A stretch of DNA of 44,693 nucleotides from UHGV virus genome UHGV-0200912. The stretch is one strand, 5' to 3'. The position numbers and the translations under genes were made by a program. The notes below the pieces were generated by a model, which saw only the letters and a list, made by a program, of their open reading frames with translations, made no database searches and was not told where the DNA came from. Positions 3,946 to 34,471 of this stretch are shown here, piece after piece (positions within the stretch are counted from its first letter, which is position 1; each line of letters starts with the position of its first letter). This DNA comes from a virus.

Positions 3946-4380
3946 ATGCAAGTTAACCTAGAAAGAATATCATTTATAACACCTTTTTCTGATAGTGAGG
4001 ACCAGACACAGCCAAAGCTTAGTTTTGAGTGCGTGAACTTCCCCGCTCAGTTTTCGATAAATTTCCGGGTGGGAATGGTAGGTTTGAAGCCAAATACTCG
4101 CTATCAACTCGGACTGTTTGTTATACCAGCTCATTTATTTATTAAAGAGGGGCAGGGATTTCAACTTCCTGACGGCACTCAGGAATCTGTTTCTGTTAAC
4201 ATTGATACTAAAGACAGCAACATGGCGACGGGTGCCAGTGGACAGGTTGTCATTACTCTAAACGAAATGCGCCTCCCTGGTAAGGGGCTGTATAGTGTGA
4301 CTGGCGTCTTACACGCCAACGATTCGATAAAAACCGTGCTTCATAAAAACGAGTCATTTTTCACTGTTGATAAATTATGA
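3946..4380 (+). CDS. hypothetical soluble protein, first gene of a cI-cotranscribed cassette in the rexA position
   Basis: strong GGAGGAATT RBS; 54 nt after the cI stop; AT-rich compared with neighbours; no known motif. Confidence 0.6.
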   Translation: MQVNLERISFITPFSDSEDQTQPKLSFECVNFPAQFSINFRVGMVGLKPNTRYQLGLFVIPAHLFIKEGQGFQLPDGTQESVSVNIDTKDSNMATGASGQVVITLNEMRLPGKGLYSVTGVLHANDSIKTVLHKNESFFTVDKL

Positions 4381-9893: not shown

Positions 9894-10108
9894 GCGCAGA
9901 AATCATCGTTCAGGCCAACGAGCTGGCAGAGCGCCGGCTGGAAATGACCATCCAGAGCATGCGGATCAACCATGCGGCAGTTTCAGCTACTCACTGCCGC
10001 GACTGCGGGGAAGAGATACCAGAACCGCGCCGGGAAGCTGTGGCGGGCTGTCAGCGCTGTGCTGACTGTCAGGAAGAGTTTGAAGAACGTGGTAAGCATC
10101 GGAGGTGA
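9890..10108 (+). CDS. TraR/DksA-family C4 zinc-finger protein
   Basis: CRDCGEEIP...CQRCADCQ, two CxxC pairs; 72 aa. Confidence 0.65.
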   Translation: MSAEIIVQANELAERRLEMTIQSMRINHAAVSATHCRDCGEEIPEPRREAVAGCQRCADCQEEFEERGKHRR

Positions 10109-10110
10109 TA

Positions 10111-10445
10111 TGGCATCTGACAAACCGATAACAGCACAGCAGGCCGCCGATTTGCTCATCGTGTCGGCGCGGGTGATCTACCGCCTGATTGAGTCTGGGG
10201 AGCTCGCTGGCCGCAAGGTCGGCAACAAGTACAGAACGACCGAAGCAGCTTGTATTGCATATTTGAAAACCCCGCGCGATCCTGTCATCGCGAACGCGGG
10301 TGAACATAAAGGAGAAGTTTTATGTCAATCACCCTCAGGGGCGGCGTGTGGCACTGTCATTTCTTTACGCCGTCAGGAAAAAGAGTTAGGCGATCTCTTG
10401 GCACGGGGGACAAAAAGCAGGCTCAGGAGCTCCACGACAAGCTGA
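10111..10445 (+). CDS. xis: excisionase-like HTH DNA-binding protein overlapping the int start
   Basis: GGAGGTG RBS; [32 protein letters not shown] helix-turn-helix; overlaps int by about 120 nt. Confidence 0.55.
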
Positions 10446-11485
10446 AGGCGGAAACGTGGCGGGTTGACCAGATCGGCGACCTGCCCGTCAGAACCTTTGA
10501 AGAGTGCTGCATCCGGTGGCTGCGGGAAAAGGACCATAAGCGATCGCTGGATGATGACAAAACCAAAATTGAGTTTTGGCTGCAGCATTTTTCCGGCCGT
10601 GATGTCTCGAAGATAACGGCGGATGAAGTTCATGAAGCCGTTAACGGGATGATCAACCGTAAACACCTGCAGGTGTGGGAGAGTAAGCGTGATGCCGCGC
10701 TGAGGAAGGGTAAGCCTGTTCCGGAGTACAAACCACGGCAGGTTTCGCAGGCGACGAAGGCGCAACACCTTTCCTTCATTCGATCCCTTCTCAGGGCCGC
10801 GGCGAATGACTGGGGCTGGATAAAAACAGCTCCTGTTATCAAAACCCGCAAGCCGATCAGTAAGCGGATACGGTGGCTGACCAGAGAAGAAGCTGAGCGG
10901 TTGATCGAGTGCATGCCGGAGAGCATTAAGCCAGTGGTGATATTTGCACTGGCAACCGGCCTGCGCCGCTCAAACATCATTGGGCTTGAGTGGCAACAGG
11001 TCGATATGCAGAGAAAGGTTGCATGGGTAAATCCGGAGAACGCAAAAGCGGGCAAGGCGATTGGCGTAGCTCTGAATGATACCGCATGCAGGGTATTAAG
11101 GGATCAGATAGGGAAGCATTCCCGGTGGGTGTTCGTTCACACGACGGCAAAGCATCGCCCTGATGGAACGCTGACGCCCGCGGTTAGAAAAATGCGTGTG
11201 GATGACAATAACGCCTGGCGAGCCGGGTTGAAAAAAGCGGGGATCGAGGATTTCCGTTTTCACGACCTCCGGCACACCTGGGCGAGCTGGCTTATTCAGT
11301 CCGGCGTCCCACTTTCTGTTTTGCAGGAAATGGGAGGATGGGAGAGCATCGAGATGGTACGTCGTTATGCTCACCTGGCGCCGAACCACCTGACCGAACA
11401 CGCACGGAAAATTGACGCCATTTTTGGCGCTAGCGACACAAATACGACACAAGGAGGAAATCAGGCTGGTTTGAAACTTGCATAA
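10322..11485 (+). CDS. int: tyrosine integrase
   Basis: C-terminal [15 protein letters not shown]...VRRYAHL (R..HxxR..Y catalytic motif); 387 aa; 3' end points at the att core. Confidence 0.9.
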
Positions 11486-11500
11486 GTGCTTGTTTCTTAA

Positions 11501-11545
11501 TGGCACGCCCTACAGGATTCGAACCTGTGACCTACGGCTTAGAAG
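11501..11545 (-). other. attP core: 45-nt copy of the 3' half of a tRNA-Arg(UCU) gene, anticodon loop to CCA
   Basis: reverse complement reads CTTCTAAGCCGTAGGTCACAGGTTCGAATCCTGTAGGGCGTGCCA, closely resembling the E. coli argU 3' half; the upstream part cannot form an anticodon stem, so it is a fragment and not a gene. Confidence 0.7.
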
Positions 11546-11605
11546 AAAGTAGAGCGTTAAATAACACACTGTAATCACACATGTTTTCCGCGTTCGCATC
11601 CGGTT

Positions 11606-11625
11606 TTGTGTCGTTTCGTGTCGTT
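11606..11625. repeat. tandem GTGTCGTTTC/GTGTCGTTTG in the attP arm (candidate Int arm-type or accessory sites)
   Basis: direct reading; a related inverted copy cgacacagaaaccacg lies at about 11664. Confidence 0.3.
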
Positions 11626-11712
11626 TGAATACATCCCTGTCTTTATCGTGCATTCCTGTCACGCCACATCTACGACACAGAAACCACGAACTCTTCCACT
11701 CATTGACAGCAA

Positions 11713-11937
11713 CTAAATAACCGCATTGTCCTGGCGCACATCGCAGATAGTAAACGTCACGATGCCGATGACAGTAACATTGTCCAGGGCTTCACCCTCG
11801 ATCGCTTCACCATCTTCGGTAATCAGCGACTTTCCTCTCAATGTGGCAAGTTCCGTCCCGCCGCCGTGCTGGATCAGAACCTGACTTCCCTGCTTTGGCT
11901 TCAGGGAGATATCCAGCACAACGTAACCGCAGAAATC
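11713..11937 (-). CDS. in-frame continuation of the tail fibre gene past an amber codon (readthrough extension or truncated remnant)
   Basis: same reading frame as 11938..12672, separated only by TAG at 11938..11940; 6 sense codons then a 68-codon ORF. Confidence 0.4.
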   Translation of the reverse strand, partial: DFCGYVVLDISLKPKQGSQVLIQHGGGTELATLRGKSLITEDGEAIEGEALDNVTVIGIVTFTICDVRQDNAVI

Positions 11938-14954: not shown

Positions 14955-17426
14955 TTACGGATAAATCGAGTCTGAATACTCAGTCAGGGAAAGCGTTTGA
15001 GTATCGTCACCGTTTGGTTTTGCGCTATCGACGCGCCAGATTGTGGAGTTGAGTTCCGAGTCGGTAGCGATGAAATACCGGCTGGGGTTTTGTACCGTAC
15101 TGCGGTCATAAATGGCCAGGTCGAAGGTATCGGCTGCAGCCTGAAATGCTTTTGGCTTGCCGCTTACCGGATAGGCCCGCCAGCGACCGCGGTAATTGCC
15201 GAGACTGTCAGTCATCACCACCCACATATCGCCGAGAGAAAAGTCGATACGCTCTGATGTCGAAAACACGTCGCCGGATCGCCCGGTGATATAGCCTGTT
15301 TGCTGCGCGTTATCGTACATGTCAGGACACTGAACCACCGTACCGCGCACCACCTGAGTCGACTCCAGCACTTTCACCGTCATGGTCAGGCGTGAGTAGA
15401 GAATTTTCCTCGCCTCAAGCCAGGCCCTGTCGGTTGCCTGAGTGGCGTTGCGGCAGCCGTCCAGGCTGATCTGCATCGCGTTAACAGTAGCGTCGGAAAT
15501 TTCACTTATTCCGGAGGTCCCCACGTTTAGGTATATGTAGGTCTTTTTGTTAGTTGAAGGGTCGACGTAGTCGAGCGTCACGCCGTCATACCCACCAGGT
15601 AAAGACATTTTCCATGACAACTTGTAATCTTCCCAGAACATATTCGAACGGGCGAAAACCGCATCTGGGTTAGAAACCCTTTCATCACGCCAGAATGTAA
15701 GAACATCACCGATCCAGTTAAAACTAACGCGAGCTACGTTACAGATAGTCTGTATTCGCTCACCTAGCGGCTGATTTTCATCGGAAAATGTCCAGTCAAA
15801 ATAACCAAGCTGAGCATCTGGCAGCGAGTCTTTAATGGCGTAAAGCGAAGGTAAATCAAGCCTGGATGGATCCTGTTTGCCAATGATCACCCACTCATGT
15901 AGTACGGCGTCAGCAAATGACCTGCTGGGCCGCAATGCAAAGTCAATGCCGCTTGACGTCCATGATATGACCTTCCTCTGCACCAGACAGTTATATTTAC
16001 GATCTGACGCTACAGTCTGTGTTTCCGTCTGTCTGACAGTGACCCTGACAATTGTGTCATCGGTATATACTACGTTTTTACGGATGGTTACAGCATGCGC
16101 GCCGGACAAATACAGTACTGAGTTGCTGGCCGAGTTATTGGTTCGCTCAGCTCTAAAGGCATAACGTCCAAAACCCGCAACAGGTGTTATTTTGTATGTC
16201 CGGTAAATGTAATCCTGATTGCCTCCATCGTTATGCACGTTTACATCAATGCTCTCTTCGGTACCAGGTATCTGGTTGTTATCGGTGTCGACCTGCCACC
16301 ATGTGATACGGGCAGGCCCGTCATATCCGCCTGCTTCATTCGCGTAGAGGTGCACCCAAAGCTGATCACCAGGGAGCGCCGCAAAAAATGGCCCAACCGC
16401 AATAGTCGAATACTGAGTCAGTGTGAAAAGAGTGCTGTTTACCGTGGCGTCTGCTGGCAATCCCTCAAAGTCTGGACCAGACAAATAGTTAAACCAAAAC
16501 TCATAGAATTGTTGCGGATCGATAAGTGTCCCATCATCTGATAGCGCAGAGTTAAACAAACTAGCAGATACATTAATGTTTTTTGTTACCAGCCCACTGG
16601 CTGTATTATATGACACATTTACAGTGATTGTGACCGAAAATGGTTTTGGAGAGTCATAGAAAACATCAAACTCATTTTGTTTTTCAATTTTTGCATAAAA
16701 CTGGCCTCCAGCGAAACTACCAGCCAGCAAATTATTCGTCGTGGCTTGATTAACGATATTTGATGTCTGCTCGTTGGTGCCAGGAAGCTCCTGCCCATCA
16801 ACATCGTCAAAGGCATATCCCTGAATAATCTCTGGGATTACCGTGCCTGGATGATAAACTTCATAGCTGGCGCCGGCCATAGCTACCAGAGAAGATTCGG
16901 AATAACGTACTGATGAAATATTGTAGTGTCCATAGCCTATCTCCATCCACTCTGTAACCATTTTATTATTACTGATGTATTCAAACATCGATTCCTGTAT
17001 GAGATCTGGATAGGCTCGTACTTGACCATAAATATTCGGCCTACCTTTATATAGACGGGCCCGGTTGGTCTGCTGGGTGACATCATTGTTGGGCGACTCT
17101 CCAGTTGCAACAGAAACGCCTCCGGATTTTGGTGCAAGACCGAGCAATTTCATTGCGCCAGAGAGAATTTTTGTGACCGGTCGTAATATGGTGTTGATCA
17201 GTTTCCCTACCCCACCCTCTGGCTGGTCGAATATAAGGACTACATCATTTCTGCACAGCGGATAAGTTATCTCGAAGTCGTCATCAAGTTCTCTGCCGTT
17301 AAGCTTAACTACCACATCATTGTGCAAATTCAGAGAATCAAGTAACTCAGCTAGCGGCGTTCCTTCCTCCGCAACTCCACGATGCTTTGGCGCGCCAGGA
17401 AGGCGTTGTAATTCATATCGAACCAT
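14955..17426 (-). CDS. tail tip/host-specificity protein (GTA gp15-like central fibre)
   Basis: about 824 aa after the NlpC/P60 tail gene; start refined to MVRYELQ (ATG 17426), overlapping the upstream gene by 14 nt. Confidence 0.55.
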   Translation of the reverse strand: MVRYELQRLPGAPKHRGVAEEGTPLAELLDSLNLHNDVVVKLNGRELDDDFEITYPLCRNDVVLIFDQPEGGVGKLINTILRPVTKILSGAMKLLGLAPKSGGVSVATGESPNNDVTQQTNRARLYKGRPNIYGQVRAYPDLIQESMFEYISNNKMVTEWMEIGYGHYNISSVRYSESSLVAMAGASYEVYHPGTVIPEIIQGYAFDDVDGQELPGTNEQTSNIVNQATTNNLLAGSFAGGQFYAKIEKQNEFDVFYDSPKPFSVTITVNVSYNTASGLVTKNINVSASLFNSALSDDGTLIDPQQFYEFWFNYLSGPDFEGLPADATVNSTLFTLTQYSTIAVGPFFAALPGDQLWVHLYANEAGGYDGPARITWWQVDTDNNQIPGTEESIDVNVHNDGGNQDYIYRTYKITPVAGFGRYAFRAERTNNSASNSVLYLSGAHAVTIRKNVVYTDDTIVRVTVRQTETQTVASDRKYNCLVQRKVISWTSSGIDFALRPSRSFADAVLHEWVIIGKQDPSRLDLPSLYAIKDSLPDAQLGYFDWTFSDENQPLGERIQTICNVARVSFNWIGDVLTFWRDERVSNPDAVFARSNMFWEDYKLSWKMSLPGGYDGVTLDYVDPSTNKKTYIYLNVGTSGISEISDATVNAMQISLDGCRNATQATDRAWLEARKILYSRLTMTVKVLESTQVVRGTVVQCPDMYDNAQQTGYITGRSGDVFSTSERIDFSLGDMWVVMTDSLGNYRGRWRAYPVSGKPKAFQAAADTFDLAIYDRSTVQNPSRYFIATDSELNSTIWRVDSAKPNGDDTQTLSLTEYSDSIYP

Positions 17427-17808
17427 GCACCATATACTCCACGCGGCTGTATACTTTAAGAAGCGCCAGCGGGTTGTCGCTGCGCACGAAACCAAACTCC
17501 CCACGGGAATGCAGGCACTTAACGGGGCTTGTCATTACGCCAATATGCGCCGGGACTTCACCACGATAGAAAACCGCAATGCAACCCGACACCGCTGCTG
17601 GTATCGTTCGCCAGTGCTCCACCTCCTGCTCATGGCAAGTAATGAAGTCAGCCCCGGCTTCATACGCTGGAATATGGTGTAACTCAAGTCCCAGCACATG
17701 CCGGTAATACAGAACAACCAGCGCCCAACAATCCATCGAGCCAAAACTGCAGGAGCGGTTAGCCCACGGCTTGCCGGTAACAAGCCGGATAAATTCGTCT
17801 TGCGTCAT
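17413..17808 (-). CDS. tail-associated NlpC/P60 family cysteine peptidase
   Basis: catalytic Cys context SMDCWALVVLYY and downstream His; 131 aa; GTA gp14-like position. Confidence 0.65.
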   Translation of the reverse strand: MTQDEFIRLVTGKPWANRSCSFGSMDCWALVVLYYRHVLGLELHHIPAYEAGADFITCHEQEVEHWRTIPAAVSGCIAVFYRGEVPAHIGVMTSPVKCLHSRGEFGFVRSDNPLALLKVYSRVEYMVHGSI

Positions 17809-19331: not shown

Positions 19332-19577
19332 TTATTCAATTGCCTGCGGAGACTTAGGAGTATCTTCGATTATAATGTCGAATTTTTTGATATCCCCATC
19401 CTGAGGCGTAATCTTAAATTCAGAGTTAGCCGGGATGATCCCCTCCACAACACTCCCGTTAACCATTTCCAGACGGAATTTTACCGGTCTGTTTTGGCGG
19501 AAAATGGTCGTCTTGCCTATCTCCATACCCCTACTAAAACTTTCTCCAGGCCCATAGATATTATCTTTCCCCATCAA
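19332..19577 (-). CDS. small tail-module protein following the tape-measure gene
   Basis: ATGA overlap with the tape-measure stop; 81 aa. Confidence 0.5.
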   Translation of the reverse strand: MMGKDNIYGPGESFSRGMEIGKTTIFRQNRPVKFRLEMVNGSVVEGIIPANSEFKITPQDGDIKKFDIIIEDTPKSPQAIE

Positions 19578-22500
19578 AACGCTCCTTTTGCTTTACGAGA
19601 TAACCCAAGCGTCGATTGTAGCGTGCTGATGTAAGGCCCATTGCGTTCCGCATCAGAAATCAGGAATTCCAGCACATAATTACCGTCATTCTGAGTGGCC
19701 CCCATGTATTGCGGCTCAGCATTGGACGCTTGATTGTTGATGACTACCTGAACATTCAACCCGCCGCCGCCCTGCATATCCTTATTGCTGATGACCTTCC
19801 CGTTATCGCCAGGGATCATGTACTGCTTGCCGGTGCTGGCCTGGTAAATCTCTGGTTTGCCGCCTTCACCCACCTGGTACATTGAGCCAGCAGATACTGG
19901 ACCACCGTTTTTACGTTTACCGGCCAATGCCATAACGCCAGCCATAGCGCCCAGACCGATAGCAACTGCACCTCCCCATGAAGCTATCGAGGACATGATC
20001 GCAGCTGGAGTCCATGCTGCAGTGGTAGTGGCCGCCGCCGCAGTGCTTGCCGCTGTCTGAGTGGTTATCCCTGCGACTTGTGCGGCAGTAGTTGCTGCTA
20101 TTGCAGTCTGTTGGGTGGTCGCGCCCACAATCGCGTTTCTGGCCCACTCAACACCCATTTGAACGAATGCGTTTACAAGACTGTTCAAAACGGTGCTGGC
20201 AAGTGATTGCGCTGCTTCCTGTGCGCTCATACTTCCTGTAATTATGCCGGTCAGGGCGTTAGAAGCATTACCAGCCAGAGCATCGAATGAAGCAGCGATG
20301 GCCTCATTGCCAAGGCTCTGATTTCGGTAAACCTCCCACATAGCAGCGGTTCTCTGCTGCTCATACTGAGTGTCAGCGGCTTTTTTCAGTGCCAGGGCCT
20401 GAGTGTGAGCAATAACCCCTTGCTGCTCGAACTGCTGAATCAGCGCCAACTCCTGCGCGTGCTGGTTGGCCAGCCGCTGAACTGGATCAATCTCTCCCTG
20501 AGCTTGTTGCTGAGGAGTTGCTACTTGCCCAGCCCGAATTTTTGCCAGATTAACTTGGTGCTGTTGCTCAATCTGCTCGCTAGCCTGATTGTATTGCTGC
20601 TGAGAGATGATCAGATTGCCTTGCGCATCTTTCGCATCCTTGAGGGTTTCAAGTTGCGATTTCTGTGCATTGTAGTCTGCATTTTCTTTAAGCTCAGGAA
20701 CGGCATTGCGCGCCTTAATTGCTGCCGCCGTATCCCAAACAGCAGCCGCGTAATTTCTAGCCTGCTGAACCTGATCGGCTGATGCGGATTTACCGAGTGA
20801 CTGCTCGGCCCTTAGCATCGCCTGTTCCCGGCTTAACTCCTGAGTTGAGCCAGCAGCGAGTTCTGATTGCTGTTTGAGGTTGGCCAGCTTTTGGGCTACA
20901 GATTCCTGCTGGTTAGCAAGTTTCTTAGCCTCAGACGCCGCAGCATTATCTTCCTTCTTCTGATCCTTTCTTGCCTGAGTGTTTCTCTCTGTTGCAGCAT
21001 AATTATCCTGAAGCCTTTTGATTGCTCGATCATCTGTAACGCCTGCATCCTCAGCATCATAGGCTGCCTGCTGCCTGGCTTTTGCTTCCCCCTCCAATTT
21101 TGACAAGGCAAGTCGGCGCTCAGCCTGCTTAATTAACTTCTCGCCTTCTTTCCCGCCCCAGTTTATTTTCAGACTTTCTGAGTTGAAGGCTTTCAGGGCC
21201 TGCGTTGATTGGCCGAGTTTTTCAGCCAGGAATGCCTGGGTTCCACCGAGGAATGACGCTTGCTTTTCAGCTTCAGCGATAGCGATAGCGTTATCTCTGG
21301 CAGCCCTCATCTGATCAACAATGCCCTGATTAACTTGAATGTTAATTAGGTGTAATGCGTCTTCAGTTTGCTTAAGAGTGGCTGTCGCTCCATCCAGATC
21401 CCTGCGCTTTTTGGCCAACTCGTTTGCGGCATCCCTTGCCTTAATCACGAAACCATTATTTTGATCTTCGGTAACTCCGTATTGCCTTGCAAGCGTTGTA
21501 TATTTCTCGTAATCGGATTGCAGACCTGAAATGGTATCTTTCAGATCGCTAATAGCTTCCTTTTGCGCCTCAATTGAGGTGACCGTATCAGCCCTAACGC
21601 CCTGAGCTTGAGCAAGATTCATGTCCTTGAGGCGCTTAATAACGTCAGGTACGGTGTCAGCAAAAGCTATTGCCTCTTTTCTGGCCTCAGCCTGTCGCTG
21701 TGAATACAGATACCAGCCAGCGGCAACAATGGCTATTACGCCAATGGGCCCACCCAAAGGGGCAGTAACCGAATTCACTACCTTCATTGTGTTTGCAAAA
21801 GTTATACCCGTAGCGGCCACTTTGGCTTGTGATGCCGCTAGTGCATTATTAGCCAATGCAGCTTCAGCGGATGTTGCGACATAAATCCCCCTTAGCCGTA
21901 TAACGTTCTCAAGTGCAAAGGCTTCAGCGGCAGATCCTTTTGCTACGTTATACTCCGCAGTTGCCAGATTTAGAGCGGAAAGGGCAGCATCTTTATCTGC
22001 TACTGCTTTTCTGGCTGTTACTGATGCCGCTGCAGCTTCCTGCTGCGCCGATTGCCTTGTCGCAACTATTCCCTGAATTGTTGCTTTCACTCTTGAGGCT
22101 TGAGCGGCTGTTGCCATTGCTAGCGCGCCAGCAAACCTACCACCCATTATTGCAGCAGCGCCAATTAAAGCTGTCCCCAGCGTCTCAAGGTTTTCGCTTA
22201 TTGTAATAACAGAGTCTCGGAACCCTGCTGCGAATGATTTAACCGTTGAGTTTTCGCCAAAGAACTTCGTTACGTTGTTACCGGCCACCTGCAATCCCTT
22301 GGCGATTGAGACGGTGGTGTTGGCAAATTCTTTGCCGATTGCATCCCCTTGTGATAAAAGCCCTTTAACCACAACGTCTGTTGTCAGTTGCCCTTGAGCG
22401 GCCATAGCCCTTAACTGACCGATAGAAACACCCATCGAATCAGCCAGAGCGACCATGAGGCGGCTCCCCTGCTCTGACACTGAGTTAAACTCTTCGCCGC

Positions 22501-23047
22501 GCAGAACGCCGGAAGCGATACCCTGTGATAGCTGAATGATTGCGTTCTCAGCTTCCTGAGCAGTTGCGCCGGATACCGCAAATCCCTGGTTGATAATGGT
22601 GGTAAGGCGGGTTAAGTCTTCTGCGCTGGTGTTGTATGTTCTGGTTCCGCGCTCAAGCCGGGCGTAAAGAGTCGCCGTGCCGTTCAGGGATGACTGGGTT
22701 GCTTGTGAAACATCAAAGATCCGCTGCATAACTTCGGCCTGCGTCTCTCCAGTACGAACCGAGTTAGCGACTTTGTTATTCAGTTCAGTCCAGGCATCGG
22801 CGTAACTCGCAACCTGTTGCACAGAAAGCGCGGCAAGCAAACCTTTAGCAACGCCAGAGAGGCTGGACATTGTCCGCTCCATAGAGCCAATGGAACGTTC
22901 AGTGCGGTTAACACTGGCCTCCAGACGCCCCATGCTCCCATTAAGACCGTTCAGCGCCGCATCAACTTCCCGGCGAGCTGCCAGTAAGCGCGAAGTATCC
23001 ATGTCCACTTCATAGATAACGCTACCAGCATCAAATGTTCCAGCCAT
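19574..23047 (-). CDS. tail tape measure protein
   Basis: about 1157 aa; A/Q-rich coiled-coil centre; TM-like segments; start refined to the ATG with a GGAG RBS at 23047. Confidence 0.85.
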   Translation of the reverse strand: MAGTFDAGSVIYEVDMDTSRLLAARREVDAALNGLNGSMGRLEASVNRTERSIGSMERTMSSLSGVAKGLLAALSVQQVASYADAWTELNNKVANSVRTGETQAEVMQRIFDVSQATQSSLNGTATLYARLERGTRTYNTSAEDLTRLTTIINQGFAVSGATAQEAENAIIQLSQGIASGVLRGEEFNSVSEQGSRLMVALADSMGVSIGQLRAMAAQGQLTTDVVVKGLLSQGDAIGKEFANTTVSIAKGLQVAGNNVTKFFGENSTVKSFAAGFRDSVITISENLETLGTALIGAAAIMGGRFAGALAMATAAQASRVKATIQGIVATRQSAQQEAAAASVTARKAVADKDAALSALNLATAEYNVAKGSAAEAFALENVIRLRGIYVATSAEAALANNALAASQAKVAATGITFANTMKVVNSVTAPLGGPIGVIAIVAAGWYLYSQRQAEARKEAIAFADTVPDVIKRLKDMNLAQAQGVRADTVTSIEAQKEAISDLKDTISGLQSDYEKYTTLARQYGVTEDQNNGFVIKARDAANELAKKRRDLDGATATLKQTEDALHLINIQVNQGIVDQMRAARDNAIAIAEAEKQASFLGGTQAFLAEKLGQSTQALKAFNSESLKINWGGKEGEKLIKQAERRLALSKLEGEAKARQQAAYDAEDAGVTDDRAIKRLQDNYAATERNTQARKDQKKEDNAAASEAKKLANQQESVAQKLANLKQQSELAAGSTQELSREQAMLRAEQSLGKSASADQVQQARNYAAAVWDTAAAIKARNAVPELKENADYNAQKSQLETLKDAKDAQGNLIISQQQYNQASEQIEQQHQVNLAKIRAGQVATPQQQAQGEIDPVQRLANQHAQELALIQQFEQQGVIAHTQALALKKAADTQYEQQRTAAMWEVYRNQSLGNEAIAASFDALAGNASNALTGIITGSMSAQEAAQSLASTVLNSLVNAFVQMGVEWARNAIVGATTQQTAIAATTAAQVAGITTQTAASTAAAATTTAAWTPAAIMSSIASWGGAVAIGLGAMAGVMALAGKRKNGGPVSAGSMYQVGEGGKPEIYQASTGKQYMIPGDNGKVISNKDMQGGGGLNVQVVINNQASNAEPQYMGATQNDGNYVLEFLISDAERNGPYISTLQSTLGLSRKAKGAF

Positions 23048-23063
23048 TTTATTTTCTCCGGGC

Positions 23064-23088
23064 AATAAAAAACCCCGCCGGAGCGAGG
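23064..23088 (-). terminator. rho-independent terminator after the moron pair
   Basis: CCCCGC-cgga-GCGAGG stem then TTTTTTATT on the minus strand. Confidence 0.55.
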
Positions 23089-23113: not shown

Positions 23114-23812
23114 TCAATCTTCTCCTAAGCGCACTGCTGAGCATGGAGTAAAACTGTGTGCATCTGAAATATATCCACTGACCTTTTGAGGGTTGTATGC
23201 AACTCTCATTGAACCACCATTGAAGGTTATAGAATACTCTCCATTTTTAAATGATGCCCTTTCACCCTGGTAATACGATTCTCCAATCATAACAAGCGGT
23301 TTATAGCCAGTTGAAAACCCTACACTACCAGCCCATCCACATTCAAGAAGCATGAAAAGATGAGTCTCCTTGAGGAAAAATTTATGTGCCTCTTTACCGC
23401 CCCACGGAATGGATGCAATTCGTTTCATTTGCTCTTTGACGTCTGATTTTGTTCTATCTAGGCCATCTTTGGCGACATCAACTGAGCATTTATCCCACTG
23501 CTCGGTGGTTTTTTTTATTCGGTCAGATATCGCAAAGTTAGATTTGTCCTGGCTAGCGGCAAATACCTTTGTTTTATCATCAATGAAAATCATACCATCT
23601 TTCTTTTCAGTCAGTGGTGGGCTTACTACATAAGAGCCTCCTGGCCTATATGCTGTAAAAGATTTTCCGTTGAATATTACATTTGCGCTGCCTTTAGTGA
23701 GAAGAGTTGGAGGTGAAGAAAAATCCCCGACCGCATACTCACAAACAAGATTTTCATTAGCCACAGCCACGCCTGAGGCCATCAAAAGACTAAGCGCAAT
23801 AAAACCCCTCAT
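23114..23812 (-). CDS. secreted/periplasmic hypothetical protein (moron)
   Basis: signal peptide MRGFIALSLLMASGVAVA from ATG 23812 with a GGGGATAGGGAT RBS; AT-rich; the upstream track extension is Cys-rich junk. Confidence 0.55.
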   Translation of the reverse strand: MRGFIALSLLMASGVAVANENLVCEYAVGDFSSPPTLLTKGSANVIFNGKSFTAYRPGGSYVVSPPLTEKKDGMIFIDDKTKVFAASQDKSNFAISDRIKKTTEQWDKCSVDVAKDGLDRTKSDVKEQMKRIASIPWGGKEAHKFFLKETHLFMLLECGWAGSVGFSTGYKPLVMIGESYYQGERASFKNGEYSITFNGGSMRVAYNPQKVSGYISDAHSFTPCSAVRLGED

Positions 23813-23897
23813 ATCCCTATCCCCATTGGTTTGTTTTGGACAGATTAGCAGGGATAGGAGGGAACGACAAAACCCGCAGCAGTTCACTTAAAAAGGG

Positions 23898-24410
23898 CTA
23901 AACAATGCCGGGCAAGTACAACTGAACTTCATCGGCGGCCCGCTCCCGCGCTGCGTGCAGTAGCTGCTTACGTCCGCCGACTCCCCATTTCGCCATCTGG
24001 CTAGCACACTGGCTAATCGCTTTGGTTTCGGTGTTGATGATATGGTCGATTTTGTTCAGCCGTGACATAGCGTCAATGCCATGACGGATTAGCATCTGGA
24101 ATGTCTCGTATACCTTTATCTCGAATAAGGGGTTAAGCCAAGCAGCATAACGGATGGCAATTAATTCGAGCCCCCATGACCCCTGAAGCGGTCCACCTTT
24201 GATGGTTAACACCGATGCGATTTTCTTCGCATCGCTCAGGGCCTGCACAAACCGCCTTACTTGCTTTGTTTTAAGGAATTCACCGGGTCGCTGTGATTCG
24301 GTGGCTTTGCCTTCAGCCACAGCCGCAGCATGTAGATCGTTCAGGTTGTAGCGACCTGCGCCATCTACGCGAACGGAGACGCCGTTTACTGATACGGTAG
24401 GATATTTCAT
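23898..24410 (-). CDS. KilA-N domain protein (moron)
   Basis: N-terminal VSVRVDGAGRYNLNDLHAAAV is KilA-N-like; inserted between the tail chaperone and tape-measure genes. Confidence 0.5.
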   Translation of the reverse strand: MKYPTVSVNGVSVRVDGAGRYNLNDLHAAAVAEGKATESQRPGEFLKTKQVRRFVQALSDAKKIASVLTIKGGPLQGSWGLELIAIRYAAWLNPLFEIKVYETFQMLIRHGIDAMSRLNKIDHIINTETKAISQCASQMAKWGVGGRKQLLHAARERAADEVQLYLPGIV

Positions 24411-29902: not shown

Positions 29903-30360
29903 GCGGTAGCTTTCCCTGATTTGCGAACTTTCACGAGCTGGGCTTCAGCACCAACGGTGATCTTTTCGCGTGAAAAGAAGAGGACCTGGTCGGTGGCTGG
30001 AGTGGTCGACTTGGCCAGTGTGCCGTCACCGGCAGAAACCAGACCTTCGTTTTCCAGCAACACTTCGCCAGCCTTTACCAGCATGTGGTAATCGACATCG
30101 TCTTCGCACATGATGGCCGCGCCAGTATCCCCGGCCGGCACTGCATCGCGGATATCACCGCCGCCGATATAATTGTGCTGGAGCGCCAGGGCTACCCCTG
30201 CACCACCGGCCACATTGTGAACAGCCAGTTTCCCTGTGCTATCCAGCATTACCAGAGATCCTGGCTTCACTGCTGCCGCCATGATTGCTTCAATGACCTG
30301 CGGGTCATTCTTGCGGGCCGGGCCCGCGATTACGGTATGGAAACGAGGTGCGAGAGCCAT
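29899..30360 (-). CDS. putative head decoration or stabilisation protein
   Basis: G/A-rich 153-aa protein between the scaffold and capsid genes. Confidence 0.4.
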   Translation of the reverse strand: MALAPRFHTVIAGPARKNDPQVIEAIMAAAVKPGSLVMLDSTGKLAVHNVAGGAGVALALQHNYIGGGDIRDAVPAGDTGAAIMCEDDVDYHMLVKAGEVLLENEGLVSAGDGTLAKSTTPATDQVLFFSREKITVGAEAQLVKVRKSGKATA

Positions 30361-31715
30361 TATTCAGGAGCCTCCATAGAAAGGATTTCACTCTGAGCGC
30401 CATTCCCCTGGAATGCCGGGTTCAGACCGGTGCTGGTCTGGCACTGCGAGTACATGTCGTTCAGCGCTTCGCCGGCCAGCGAGTTGATCGCCGCTTCGGT
30501 CATGAACGGGAATTTCGCTTTGACCGCTTCACGCTTGGTCTTGAGGTCTTTTTCAGCGTTGGCCTGCAGCTGAGTTTTCAGCGTACTGATCTCGTCAGTC
30601 AGCGGCTTAATCGCCAGATTTACTGCTGCGGTAATCGCGTCAGAGTTAATCTGAGTACCCGGCTGGTCGCCTGCTTTCTTCTGTACCTGCTGGTTATAGG
30701 CATCCCAGACCTGATCGTCGGTCAGCCCCTCGGTTTTAACGCCTGCGGCATTGAGCGCGGCGATCATCTTCTCTTTCATCGGGTTTGTTTCTCCGTTGGT
30801 TTTGACTTCGTACTCAGTGGGTTTGCGCACGACCTCTACTGGATCGCCGACCAGCGTGACTGTGCTGTCGTCGATGAGGTATTTTTGCTGGAAGAGCTTA
30901 TTGCCCTCTTCGAAAATGAATTTGTCGGGCCATACGGTCACGACATAGCGATAAACATCGCTGCCTGACGGCGCGCGAATGGCTTCCCGCAGCATCTGGT
31001 AGATTTCATCGAATGAGGCATCTGAGTTGTGGGTGAGGAAGAACTTCACTTTGTTCAGCAGGCCATCTTTGAGGCTATTTGCCGCATCAACGAGGCTTGC
31101 AGTCTCGACTTCGCCTTCCTGACCATCGGCATTCACGAACATGCCGACGCCTTCCTCTGGAGTACCGGCGCCCGGCTCATCGAGCAGGATAGCGATATGG
31201 TCGAACTGCATATTGCGAGCAATCCATGAATACTTCTTCTGCTTAGACTCGCCTGACTTTCTCTCTTTGTTCGTGAGTAAGCCGGTAGACAGGTGGATCG
31301 GGTCGGTGTTGGTGCCGGCGATCATCTCATCGAGGCGATTAATCAGACGCTTACCGTCAGGCTTTGTCTCGGCGACCGCCTTATTGATATAAACGTCCAT
31401 GACGACCTGGTCGCCTGACTTACTGACGTTCTGCGCCCAGGCTCCGACGTGATAGCTGTTAATGGCCCGAGGGTCATTGGCGCTGACATACTTGCCATCT
31501 ACCATCGGGTGCGGAAGAGGCATCAGCTTGCCTTCCATCGTCTTGTAGCTGTTGTTAATCTCCTCGGCTGGATAAAGACCGCCATTCATCACGATGTCAT
31601 CGACGATCGGAACTGCACCACGGATAATATAGTGTTCCTGATCATTAATTATGGTCGTAGATATATTGGAGGCGTTGATCGCCAAGGATTTCACATGGAT
31701 ACTGGTTAAGTTCAT
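30360..31715 (-). CDS. putative prohead protease/scaffold protein
   Basis: 451 aa from ATG 31715 (GAAGGG RBS); coiled-coil C-terminus; between the Mu-F-like and capsid genes. Confidence 0.45.
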   Translation of the reverse strand: MNLTSIHVKSLAINASNISTTIINDQEHYIIRGAVPIVDDIVMNGGLYPAEEINNSYKTMEGKLMPLPHPMVDGKYVSANDPRAINSYHVGAWAQNVSKSGDQVVMDVYINKAVAETKPDGKRLINRLDEMIAGTNTDPIHLSTGLLTNKERKSGESKQKKYSWIARNMQFDHIAILLDEPGAGTPEEGVGMFVNADGQEGEVETASLVDAANSLKDGLLNKVKFFLTHNSDASFDEIYQMLREAIRAPSGSDVYRYVVTVWPDKFIFEEGNKLFQQKYLIDDSTVTLVGDPVEVVRKPTEYEVKTNGETNPMKEKMIAALNAAGVKTEGLTDDQVWDAYNQQVQKKAGDQPGTQINSDAITAAVNLAIKPLTDEISTLKTQLQANAEKDLKTKREAVKAKFPFMTEAAINSLAGEALNDMYSQCQTSTGLNPAFQGNGAQSEILSMEAPE

Positions 31716-31737
31716 GTTTAACCCTTCAGGAAAAAGA

Positions 31738-32082
31738 ATGAAAAAGGCTCTTCTTTTGTTGTTTGTCGCTTTCAGTGGAAATAGTTTTGCGACGTTTTTG
31801 ACAGGCAATGACCTTTACACCAGATATCAAGCATATGTGCGAAGTGACAACGGGACGGCTTCAAGAGAAGACTATTTCGCGGCATACGATTATATGGGGT
31901 ATGTAACCGGCGTATGGGACACATTGGGGTCAGAGCTAATTTGCCCTCAGGGCAGCATTACCCGGGGACAAATTGCCGATGTTGTCGGTATGGGATTGCA
32001 GAAAAATCCACAGACCAGAGCCGCAGATGCGGACAAATTAACCGCCTTATATCTTATGCAGTCATTTCCTTGTAAAAAATAA
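31738..32082 (+). CDS. secreted small protein encoded antisense inside the head operon (moron)
   Basis: AGGAAAAAG RBS; signal peptide MKKALLLLFVAFSGNSFA; start 22 nt from the divergent scaffold start; stop abuts the Mu-F gene stop. Confidence 0.55.
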   Translation: MKKALLLLFVAFSGNSFATFLTGNDLYTRYQAYVRSDNGTASREDYFAAYDYMGYVTGVWDTLGSELICPQGSITRGQIADVVGMGLQKNPQTRAADADKLTALYLMQSFPCKK

Positions 32083-33012
32083 CTAAGCGGCCTTTTTATC
32101 CGGGCCCCACTGTTTGCGCTCTTTTGCCAGCTTCTCAGCTAACCCCTGATTGAAAATGCTGCCGTCGTCGTTGAGCAGCACCGGAATCTGGCTGCAATAG
32201 CAGTTGTATCGGTTGCCGTTCTCGGCGTAGAAGTCCCGCACCTCTTCGGTGGTGTAGACCTTGCCGTGGCGGCTGGCGTGCCAACTGCGCGTCGTCGGTT
32301 TGAGCGCCGACAGCCACAGCAAGCCAGTATTCAGCCCAAGCCGATCCGCTGCCCAGTCCGTCTCGTTCCATTGCGCCTGCCGCAGCGCGCCGACCTGCTC
32401 AGTCTGAGCGATGGTCTTTGCGCGGCCCATAGAGACATCAAGGCGCTTGCTTATCACCTGCGCCGTTTCGCGGGGATTCACACCGCGAGCAACCGCATCG
32501 GTAATGATGTTGGTCAGATCGCCGCGGGCTGTATCGCTGATGACCTTCCAGTCACTGAACGTTGTCAGTCTGGCGGCTGCCACCTGATTAAGATAACCGG
32601 GGCTGCTTAAAAGCTGCTGTAGAGTCGTCTGGCTGGCATATACCTGCGACTGCTGCGACAGGTTGTTGAATGCCTCTAGCGTGCCGCGCTGCGCCTCTGC
32701 GGCGACGTAATCCATCGCCCACAGGTTTTGTTCGCCGCCTTCGAGCAGGTAATCGTCGAGAATAACCTGCACCGCTTCCAGCAGGTCGGCCAGTTCCTGC
32801 GCTGACATGTCGTAGATGAACTTGCCAGCGTTGACCTGGTAGAGCGTTGGCTCTGCACCGTTAACGTGACACAGGAAGTGCCAGCTGTGGCTGTTAACCT
32901 CTCGCTCACGCCCGGTCAGCCGCTGGTCGAACAGGGCTTTCAGCGCCACCTTTATCGCGTAATACCGATCCTCAATGTCGCGCTCCATCTTGCTGACGGA
33001 CTTACGTGACAT
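32083..33012 (-). CDS. head morphogenesis protein, Phage_Mu_F/SPP1 gp7 family
   Basis: core RETAQVISKRLDVSMGRAKTIAQTEQ typical of the Mu F family; start refined to MSRKSVSK just after the portal stop. Confidence 0.65.
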   Translation of the reverse strand: MSRKSVSKMERDIEDRYYAIKVALKALFDQRLTGREREVNSHSWHFLCHVNGAEPTLYQVNAGKFIYDMSAQELADLLEAVQVILDDYLLEGGEQNLWAMDYVAAEAQRGTLEAFNNLSQQSQVYASQTTLQQLLSSPGYLNQVAAARLTTFSDWKVISDTARGDLTNIITDAVARGVNPRETAQVISKRLDVSMGRAKTIAQTEQVGALRQAQWNETDWAADRLGLNTGLLWLSALKPTTRSWHASRHGKVYTTEEVRDFYAENGNRYNCYCSQIPVLLNDDGSIFNQGLAEKLAKERKQWGPDKKAA

Positions 33013-33019
33013 TGTTGGG

Positions 33020-34471
33020 TCAACTTTCGACCGTGGTATCACCGGGCTTTTCGGCTTCTGACTGAGGGTCGGCCAGAGGATCAGGTTTTGGTTTGTTGCC
33101 ATCTGGCAGATCCTCATCATCAAGCTCAGGCAGCGGTTGCAGTTCGCCCGCAGCGCGAATTTCGTTCTCAGTGATAGCAGAACGGCCAAAGGCATTCGTG
33201 GATTTCACAGCCACGTCCGCGAGCTTGTCCATGTTGGCAATCTTCTCTGCCTGACTCGGTGCCAGAAGATCAGACCAGCCTACGGTAATTTCTTCATTCT
33301 GAGCTGGCGGAATAATTCCAAGGGTCCAGAAGCGCGAAACCACATCCGTGATCACGTCGGTAAGGAAGCCATTACGGCGACTCATGCGGGTTTTGGCCCA
33401 GTCCTTAGCGTCTTCCGTACTGGCCCTCTCCCCGGTCTGCATGCCGATCAGAACTTTAACGGGGATCGGCACGGTGGCGCAGAACTCATTAAGCGCCGTT
33501 CGCCAGGTGGGTTCCGGGTCTGCAACGGCCACTGAGAGCACGCTGGCATCGCCTTCCTGCATCATGACTGCGCTGTCGGTGCTGTCATTCAGTCGACGCA
33601 CCTGATCATCCATCGCATTCGATAGCTCGGCCTCTGTTACGCCGAGGGCGCGTGCCAGTTGAGCGAAGTTCGTCTTGGAGCTGAAATTGAAATTTAGCTG
33701 GCGACTGGCATTCTTAAGAAACCCCTCCGCCCCGCCGCCGGAAACCTTTTCGAGATCCAGGAGCTTGTTAAAACCCTCTTCCAGCATCGAGCGCCCGGAA
33801 GTCATTGAGCCATCATCGGAGCCTTCAGCCAGGATAATGACGCGATCTGGGTGAACGTTGATTATGCGGCTGGGCCGGGCGTCTTTGTTGTTGCCCACCG
33901 ACAGCTCAATGAACGAGTACATCGTCACATCGCCGAAAGTTTCACTTTCTGGGTCACTATCCCATTCAATGGGCTCAATCTGCGCTTCCCATGCAGGGAT
34001 GAGTTTTACCAGCGCCTTTTCTTCCAACTGACCTACGACCACGGTATCTACCGGATCACGCCACTGTTTGCTGTCTTTAACCTGAATCAACAAAGCAGAA
34101 TATCGACCTACCAGGTTGCGTCGGTCAGCGCCCTTAATCTGCTTCCAGCAGCGCTTGAGCAGCTTGTTAACCCGCTTGTCCCACTGAGTTTGTTTGGTGG
34201 CATCTTTGGTTTTATCGCCTTCATAAATATCCGGGAAATCCTCCCAGCATCCATCAACCATGCGACTGACGGCCGCACCAGCAACAGCATTGCGGCGACA
34301 TGCCCGGTAGAAATCCTCAAAGCAGAGATCGACGGGATATCCGAACTCCTGGTAAAGGCGCTGGCGCTTCGTATTGCTGGTTCCGTTGAACAACGAGGAC
34401 AGGTAGTTCAGGCGTTCTTTTTCAAGATTGGCATTCGAGGCGCGCTCTTGTTTCATTTGGCTTTCGTTCAC
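33020..34471 (-). CDS. portal protein
   Basis: 483 aa; lies between terL and the Mu-F gene; acidic C-terminus. Confidence 0.7.
   Translation of the reverse strand: MNESQMKQERASNANLEKERLNYLSSLFNGTSNTKRQRLYQEFGYPVDLCFEDFYRACRRNAVAGAAVSRMVDGCWEDFPDIYEGDKTKDATKQTQWDKRVNKLLKRCWKQIKGADRRNLVGRYSALLIQVKDSKQWRDPVDTVVVGQLEEKALVKLIPAWEAQIEPIEWDSDPESETFGDVTMYSFIELSVGNNKDARPSRIINVHPDRVIILAEGSDDGSMTSGRSMLEEGFNKLLDLEKVSGGGAEGFLKNASRQLNFNFSSKTNFAQLARALGVTEAELSNAMDDQVRRLNDSTDSAVMMQEGDASVLSVAVADPEPTWRTALNEFCATVPIPVKVLIGMQTGERASTEDAKDWAKTRMSRRNGFLTDVITDVVSRFWTLGIIPPAQNEEITVGWSDLLAPSQAEKIANMDKLADVAVKSTNAFGRSAITENEIRAAGELQPLPELDDEDLPDGNKPKPDPLADPQSEAEKPGDTTVES

Follow-up and report, generated by a model that had tools for sequence, protein, structure and literature searches.

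The studied members of the Rap1a/Tai4a family neutralise Tae4 peptidoglycan DL-endopeptidases that are delivered by type VI secretion systems (T6SS) (PMC3852654, PMC6277958). Structures of the Tai4a group reveal periplasmic five-helix homodimers whose fold is stabilised by a disulfide bond, Cys78-Cys122 in Rap1a and Cys80-Cys124 in AtTai4, and each dimer binds two Tae4/Ssp1 DL-endopeptidase molecules, sterically blocking their active sites (PMC3852654, PMC6277958). Immunity genes of this general kind also occur as orphans: the islet t0728-t0734 of S. Typhi includes a Tai4-like orphan, and some Enterobacter have kept Tai4 without Tae4 (PMC7400221, PMC12999792). Here we describe a Rap1a/Tai4a gene in the virus genome UHGV-0200912, whose entire analysed stretch of 44,693 nucleotides we call the window. 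The gene is an open reading frame (ORF) on the plus strand, inserted between the genes for a Mu-F-like head protein and a DUF2213 protein, a position that we refer to as the slot (Table 1). The best explanation of the data is that the host phage is a lambdoid temperate phage of Klebsiella and that the gene is an orphan immunity moron in its head-gene module.

The ORF product is a full-length member of the Rap1a/Tai4a family. Its sole Pfam match is PF18602, 'Rap1a immunity proteins' (53.2 bits, gathering score 27.7, E 4.4e-14), and the match spans residues 22-112 and thereby profile positions 1-90 of 90. In PHROGs the protein is assigned to phrog_3870, for which no function is given, and no family in NCBIfam is matched. 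A word-indexed homologue search gave only three proteins; instead, 1.84 billion representatives (50%-identity clusters) were searched exhaustively with HMMER, which returned 851 relatives at E <= 1e-3, nearly all of them 100-125 residues long. An alignment of 114 relatives shows at least 90% conservation at G23, L26, G54, G58, C69, Q78, P91, P111 and C112. When the ORF product was compared with the PDB as a single sequence, phmmer returned nothing meaningful and a family profile was needed. Built from the alignment of 114 relatives and run against the whole PDB, this profile found only Tai4 of A. tumefaciens (6IJE/6IJF, 5e-13) and Rap1a of S. marcescens (3ZFI/4BI8, 6e-9). Both cysteines are aligned in the profile match to four distinct PDB sequences, and by this alignment Cys69 and Cys112 correspond to the disulfide-forming cysteines of Rap1a and AtTai4.

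Structure prediction, which the initial annotation of this stretch had proposed as a check, yielded a confident AlphaFold2 model (predicted local distance difference test score 93.8, predicted template modelling score 0.81) with the AtTai4/Rap1a fold. The mature part of the model contains four long helices (residues 23-37, 43-67, 76-89 and 98-109), whereas five are seen in the crystal structures. Foldseek, run against the PDB, gives AtTai4 and Rap1a entries as its top seven matches, with probability 1.00 and template modelling scores on the target of 0.76-0.81; the E value is at or below 0.001 for the first match only, and outside the top seven nothing is better than E = 1.7.

Judged from the sequence itself, the N-terminus carries a predicted cleavable Sec signal peptide, residues 1-18, which would direct the protein to the periplasm. 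It reads MKKALLLLFVAFSGNSFA, followed by TF, and consists of a KK n-region, a nine-residue hydrophobic core and a c-region with Ser at -3 and Ala at -1, placing the predicted cleavage after Ala18; no lipobox Cys is present in this N-terminal sequence. The initial annotation had recognised a signal peptide of the signal peptidase I type, and the n, h and c regions bear it out. Conservation of Ala18 in the homologues is at least 90%, and the Pfam domain begins at residue 22. The predicted mature protein has about 96 residues, is all alpha-helical and contains Cys69 and Cys112.

The ORF is a real gene, far beyond chance, because of the strength of the Pfam match, the occurrence of the identical protein on 526 contigs and the selection acting on the coding sequence. 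The 526 contigs were found in a public collection, where the named cluster members are Klebsiella pneumoniae. The identical protein, named 'Rap1a/Tai family immunity protein' at NCBI, occupies the same prophage position in all eight distinct genomic places examined. Within the allele types described below, the ratio of nonsynonymous to synonymous substitution rates (dN/dS) is 0.05-0.18 at dS 0.1-0.5, indicating strong purifying selection, and an intact length of 114-115 residues is kept in every allele type. A search for related genome loci with a smaller alignment found only three, in Enterobacter and Lelliottia.

One homologue would fit the view that the ORF is a chance antisense reading frame or a decaying remnant without function. 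Cronobacter phage ENT47670 (HQ201308, locus L002) carries at 3997-4339, in the same slot, an unannotated Rap1a homologue that is 56% identical to the window protein and apparently frameshifted in its signal-peptide region. In this copy the signal-peptide codons, from ATG 3997, are out of frame with the body, which starts from 4013; the break reflects a frameshift or else a sequencing error in a homopolymer. A chance or functionless ORF is ruled out by the Pfam E value of 4.4e-14, the confident fold, the dN/dS values, the constant length and the 526 contigs, and we give this explanation practically no weight.

The gene fits between its neighbours with little or no room to spare. The minus-strand ATG of the DUF2213 gene ('cat') lies at 31713-31715, leaving a divergent spacer of exactly 22 nt, and at the other end the Mu-F-like stop codon TAG ('cta', 32083-32085) abuts the plus-strand TAA with zero bases between them. 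Both features of this geometry, as well as a ribosome-binding site (RBS), had been described in the initial annotation, and all are confirmed from the sequence, the RBS being the AGGA six nucleotides before the ATG. An alternative, longer ORF of 143 codons from ATG 31651 overlaps the DUF2213 gene; this start is not the one used in homologues. The surrounding head, tail and lysis genes and the gene for antiterminator Q are all on the minus strand, so the ORF is antisense to late transcription, as had been stated; the late operon is Q-dependent and that of a lambdoid siphophage. The added claim that the gene cannot be expressed alongside the late genes goes too far, since a lower level of expression, not its absence, is what convergent transcription would cause.

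This arrangement bears on one of the two functions first proposed for the gene, that of a lysis inhibitor. A protein that sets the timing of lysis by acting on the phage's own lysis enzymes could well be a phage-encoded periplasmic member of a family of peptidoglycan-hydrolase inhibitors. But the endolysin of this phage is a GH24 Phage_lysozyme, whose fold is unrelated to the NlpC/P60 targets of the family; the gene points against late and lysis transcription instead of belonging to it; and most close relatives, which share these lysis genes, lack it. We therefore set this proposal aside as very improbable.

The slot is a hypervariable moron site, with the MuF/DUF2213 junction serving as a hot spot for cargo in general. 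We surveyed 80 viral contigs that code for proteins closely related to the DUF2213 protein and located the end of the Mu-F gene and the start of the DUF2213 gene in each. The distance between the two ranges from about 30 to about 1450 nt. A Rap1a-family ORF occupies the slot in 19 of the 80 contigs, always antisense and always 114-115 residues long. The alleles fall into type A, 98-100% identical to the window protein, type B (about 43%) and type C (about 37%). Between one another the types are 37-45% identical, and the DUF2213 and MuF flanks are 85-98% identical; the N-terminus of the DUF2213 protein is 94-98% identical in nearly all Rap1a-bearing loci (one is at 84%). Further alleles in the same slot come from an E. 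coli prophage (32% identical, annotated as Rap1a/Tai by the Prokaryotic Genome Annotation Pipeline) and from two metagenomic phage contigs (60% and 42% identical). The other cargo of the slot (loci L023-L102, at about 2100-2500 in each locus) comprises unrelated genes in both orientations: two families of antisense ORFs of 66-67 residues, sense HNH endonucleases of 230-263 residues, a 171-residue membrane protein and others. Klebsiella phage KO-TP1, for example, has an unrelated 66-residue ORF there. Several of the sense cargos finish with a AAAAAAGGCCGCC-type terminator directly before the RBS of the DUF2213 gene.

Where the alleles differ may say something about what they bind. Comparison of ten slot alleles places the greatest variability of the mature protein in residues 62-68 and 70-74, the two segments next to Cys69, and they align with Ser81-Thr87 of Rap1a, which follow Cys78. 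In Rap1a, this segment makes most of the contacts with Ssp1, including those of a residue that reaches the catalytic His (PMC3852654). The variability around Cys69 would be the pattern expected of a specificity-determining binding surface, and the divergent alleles at this one site presumably match different effector variants. A bolder proposal is that, in this group of enterobacterial temperate phages, the slot is a dedicated, recombination-driven 'immunity allele exchange' site, shuttling orphan Tai4a alleles among Klebsiella, Enterobacter, E. coli and Cronobacter; an alternative is that the proteins now serve to block the NlpC/P60 tail enzymes of competing phages. Even taken together, these two versions seem unlikely to us. 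If the first were true, prophages would be a major determinant of survival in T6SS warfare in the gut, and under the second, a T6SS immunity fold would have given rise to a novel type of superinfection exclusion.

Comparison of the loci also delimits the unit that moves. The GC content is 0.42-0.46 over positions 31500-32100, compared with 0.51-0.63 in the flanks, and the dip starts near 31500, inside the DUF2213 gene. Over the first 165-180 nt or so of this gene, an ungapped comparison gives an identity of 0.75-0.90 to loci without a type A allele; beyond this left arm, the identity in close relatives is 0.93-1.00. Type A loci are 0.97-1.00 identical in the left arm, even though their Mu-F flanks diverge within the first 60 nt, indicating that the travelling unit consists of the 5' end of the DUF2213 gene, the spacer and the ORF. 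Its right boundary is the stop codon of the ORF. Types A and B have a near-identical junction, comprising the DUF2213 start codon, the first eight codons and the RBS, though their ORFs are only 43% identical. The DUF2213 start codon is ATG in types A and B versus GTG in the examined loci without Rap1a. In type C and in the E. coli allele the spacer is about 30 nt longer, and there are separate candidate promoter elements. The periplasmic moron of the initial annotation holds as far as a genuine exported-protein gene in an antisense, low-GC insert is concerned; the functions proposed for it are not supported.

Because the spacer is only 22 nt long, a promoter for the moron must lie within the DUF2213 coding sequence. 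A promoter search of this region, also put forward earlier, gave a divided answer. A scan for consensus promoters returned only TCGACG-17-GATAAT at 31600-31628, which is at chance level, and a position weight matrix (PWM) scan identified a candidate sigma-70 promoter (Table 1) that ranks within the top 3.5% of 199 background windows. The candidate falls within the DUF2213 coding sequence, in its first 41 nt, and its -10 element ends 35 nt before the ATG of the moron. Equivalents of the form TTGATG/TTGATA-17-AATACT/GATACT are present in type B loci and in two other alleles (L013 and L014). The -10 variant xATACT, as opposed to xATGCT, occurs in 16 of the 18 classified Rap1a-bearing loci versus 4 of the 62 without Rap1a; the difference is a synonymous change in a Ser codon of the DUF2213 gene. 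The context of a more distant relative, the metagenomic homologue P0025 (36% identical; L106 1-920), is also informative. A Peptidase_S24 (cI/LexA-like) gene precedes it in the same orientation, at a distance of 12 nt. The spot just downstream of a prophage repressor is a classic position for genes expressed in the lysogen, and the location of P0025 supports such expression for the family member described here. Lysogen-specific expression from its own promoter is a reasonable inference from the geometry of the window gene. On the late-transcript strand, antisense to the moron, positions 32006-32028 (minus strand) contain a terminator-like hairpin with a T-run; it is at chance level and would be overridden by Q antitermination anyway.

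By analogy with its characterised relatives, we consider it somewhat better than an even chance that the protein confers T6SS immunity, acting as a lysogen-expressed periplasmic shield against Tae4-type peptidoglycan endopeptidases. The data establish the gene, its family, fold, signal peptide and cysteine pair, its orphan status, the variability of the slot and the purifying selection; what we infer is a promoter that is used in the lysogen, a dimer, the enzyme that is targeted and the protection of the host. While the prophage is resident, the late operon would be silent, and transcription of the gene would be driven by a weak sigma-70 promoter that belongs to it and lies within the 5' end of the divergent DUF2213 gene. 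The precursor would be exported by Sec and cleaved after Ala18. The mature helical protein of about 96 residues, locked by a Cys69-Cys112 disulfide, would then dimerise, and the periplasmic dimer would bind incoming NlpC/P60 DL-endopeptidases of the Tae4/Ssp1 type, injected by the T6SS of competitors, and sterically block their active sites. The lysogen, and hence the prophage, would survive contact-dependent attack.

Several observations weigh against this T6SS shield. The link to T6SS comes from about 20% identity (17-23%) to two characterised members of a family that is known for very narrow specificity, and no cognate effector was identified for the window protein. No Tae4 effector or T6SS gene is present among the window ORFs scanned, the neighbours being phage head genes. 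Likewise, none of the ten nearest family representatives, sampled by contig look-up, has a Tae4 effector or T6SS gene beside it. As for expression, the candidate promoter matches the consensus at 8 of 12 positions and lies in conserved codons. The association of its -10 variant with Rap1a cargo is only suggestive because the site is physically linked to the cassette: it lies within the co-inherited junction, so linkage can explain the association, which is not independent evidence. Finally, no intrinsic terminator was found 3' of the gene, either by a terminator scan or by RNA folding of the 3' flank (z = -1.4).

The window gene is therefore an orphan Rap1a/Tai4a member, and its relatives resemble it in this respect. 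Of the ten sampled representatives, three are in phages, at the slot or at other positions (P0003, P0019 and P0023), two have phage-like contexts, P0025 after a repressor gene and P0021 near an Imm_superinfect gene, and the remaining five are chromosomal orphans. With ten of ten lacking a neighbouring Tae4 or T6SS gene, this PF18602 branch appears to be dominated by orphans, and it belongs to a family of 851 representatives. Both points would suit a periplasmic inhibitor of the Rap1a fold whose target is not delivered by a T6SS but is another cell-wall hydrolase, of the NlpC/P60 type or unrelated, that enters the periplasm in some other way, or a different partner altogether; bacteriocins, contact-dependent inhibition toxins or a host autolysin could supply such a target. 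We regard a target of this kind as possible but rather unlikely. Every member characterised by experiment is a T6SS immunity protein (PMC3852654, PMC6277958), there is precedent for orphans among T6SS immunity genes (PMC7400221), and the variable residues of the slot alleles map to the effector-contact region of Rap1a.

The initial annotation had also suggested superinfection exclusion. Here the protein would inhibit, in the periplasm, a peptidoglycan-cutting enzyme at the tail tip of an incoming related phage and so block DNA entry. Such a role would suit a phage-borne gene that is antisense to the late genes and plausibly expressed in the lysogen, and the diversity of alleles could track phage variants. 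The tail module of this same phage includes the gene for a small protein that matches NlpC/P60, the superfamily of Tae4, and the Imm_superinfect gene near the homologue P0021 points in the same direction. However, the tail match is below threshold, and an entry role of such domains is unproven. No PADLOC-DB defence model is matched by the window protein at E <= 1, and to our knowledge no Rap1a-family member acts on phage proteins. With the protein assigned instead to the Rap1a/Tai4a family and no direct support for exclusion found, we judge this function improbable, and T6SS immunity remains the reading that we prefer.

Table 1. Positions of the moron gene, its expression signals and other features of the window.
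Feature	Position	Strand	Description	Basis
Rap1a/Tai4a-family ORF	31738..32082	+	ATG 31738, TAA 32080-32082; 114-aa precursor	ORF call, translation
Shine-Dalgarno AGGA	31728..31731	+	6 nt 5' of ATG 31738	Read from sequence
Divergent spacer	31716..31737	.	Carries both RBSs: AGGA (plus-strand gene) and GAAGGG (minus strand, DUF2213)	
Best candidate sigma-70 promoter	31675..31703	+	TTGATC-17 nt-GATACT	PWM scan
AT-rich left arm travelling with type A allele	31550..31737	.	DUF2213 5' end and spacer	
DUF2213/phrog_760 protein (451 aa)	30360..31715	-	Putative prohead protease/scaffold	Pfam DUF2213; phrog_760 6e-181
Mu-F-like minor head/head-morphogenesis protein	32083..33084	-	Start uncertain	PF04233, phrog_758
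Small tail-module protein (131 aa)	17413-17808	-		Sub-threshold NlpC/P60, 21.4 vs 23 bits
Unknown ORF (257 aa)	23114-23887	-	Just upstream of tape-measure gene (19574-23065)	
KilA-N domain gene	23898-24410	-	Just downstream of DUF6246 gene	

Other neighbouring genes, also on the minus strand, encode the major capsid protein (DUF6260), a decoration-like protein, the portal, the terminase, the lysis proteins and antiterminator Q. The DUF2213 protein also has a weak match to a head maturation protease in PHROGs. The longest Mu-F-like ORF, 32083-33195 (370 residues), overlaps the portal gene at 33020-34471 (minus strand) by 176 nt; in identical loci the gene is called at 301-339 residues, including 333, and the real start is probably internal, for example at 33084. 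The pair formed by the KilA-N gene and the 257-residue ORF has the DUF6246 gene immediately upstream and the tape-measure gene immediately downstream, and is probably further accessory cargo. Related prophages have a VasI-family (PF11319) gene in this region instead. An excisionase-like helix-turn-helix gene and an integrase gene (10322-11485, plus strand; region 9972-11937) adjoin the distal tail genes, which run from 11938 on the minus strand. The position of the integrase beside the distal tail genes indicates that the window is in the circular, vegetative gene order and not in that of an integrated prophage, and attP should lie at about 11486-11937.

The protein family, its fold and the existence of orphan immunity genes are already known, and the exact protein is correctly named by family in NCBI. 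We found no description of phage-borne orphan Tai4/Rap1a genes in the literature, of which our coverage was incomplete, so that this is weak evidence of novelty. Nor did we find in the literature a description of a head-module slot holding a series of divergent Tai4a alleles in phages of Klebsiella, Enterobacter/Lelliottia, E. coli and Cronobacter, or of a Tai4a gene whose expression signals overlap an essential head gene. If lysogens were protected from Tae4-type toxins, this would be a lysogenic conversion whose effect falls on contact warfare between bacteria, and not on virulence or on resistance to phages. The occurrence of the identical protein on hundreds of contigs, with Klebsiella pneumoniae as the named cluster members, lends the question clinical relevance. 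The allele series at one fixed site is a natural panel for mapping the specificity determinants of Tai4a proteins, and it would allow a test of whether the result of T6SS competition between Enterobacteriaceae can be predicted from their prophages. A compact moron without intergenic space is also useful for studying how phages accommodate antisense cargo.

The closest described proteins are Rap1a (SMA2260) of Serratia marcescens and AtTai4 (Atu4346) of Agrobacterium tumefaciens, which belong to the same PF18602 family and have the same fold. All three have an N-terminal signal peptide, a helical mature domain of about 100 residues, a conserved pair of cysteines at the positions of the disulfide between the alpha2-alpha3 loop and the C-terminus, and a C-terminal FPCK motif. 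By analogy, their action is expected to be shared as well, namely steric blocking of a Tae4 DL-endopeptidase by a dimer (PMC3852654, PMC6277958). Unlike the genes for Rap1a and AtTai4, the window gene stands alone in a phage head module, on the strand opposite to its neighbours and outside any effector or T6SS cluster. In this it is like the orphan immunity islets, where an immunity-type gene without a cognate effector is thought to protect against the toxins of rivals (PMC7400221, PMC12999792). Those orphans differ from it in residing in chromosomal islets or remnants of T6SS clusters and in belonging to another (Tai4) fold family, whereas the window gene is carried by a temperate phage in one fixed slot where alleles are swapped. 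A phage gene of the Rap1a family has already been annotated in DSL-LC04 as 'Tai4 (type VI amidase)'. Its product is 27% identical to the window protein, and the gene has the same orientation as its neighbours and belongs to the early-gene block of a different, lake-water phage, not to the head-module slot.

In its manner of carriage, the gene recalls the morons of lambda-type phages. The bor gene of lambda is a moron of the late operon that is oriented against late transcription, is expressed in lysogens and encodes a member of a serum-resistance lipoprotein family; such morons are tolerated because the Q-modified polymerase reads through them. The window gene is like them in being a small, dispensable gene for an exported protein, lower in GC, situated between essential late genes and equipped with its own candidate expression signals. 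It is unlike bor in having no intergenic room, with its putative promoter in the coding sequence of one neighbour and its stop codon abutting the convergent stop of the other, and in encoding a member of a toxin-immunity family.

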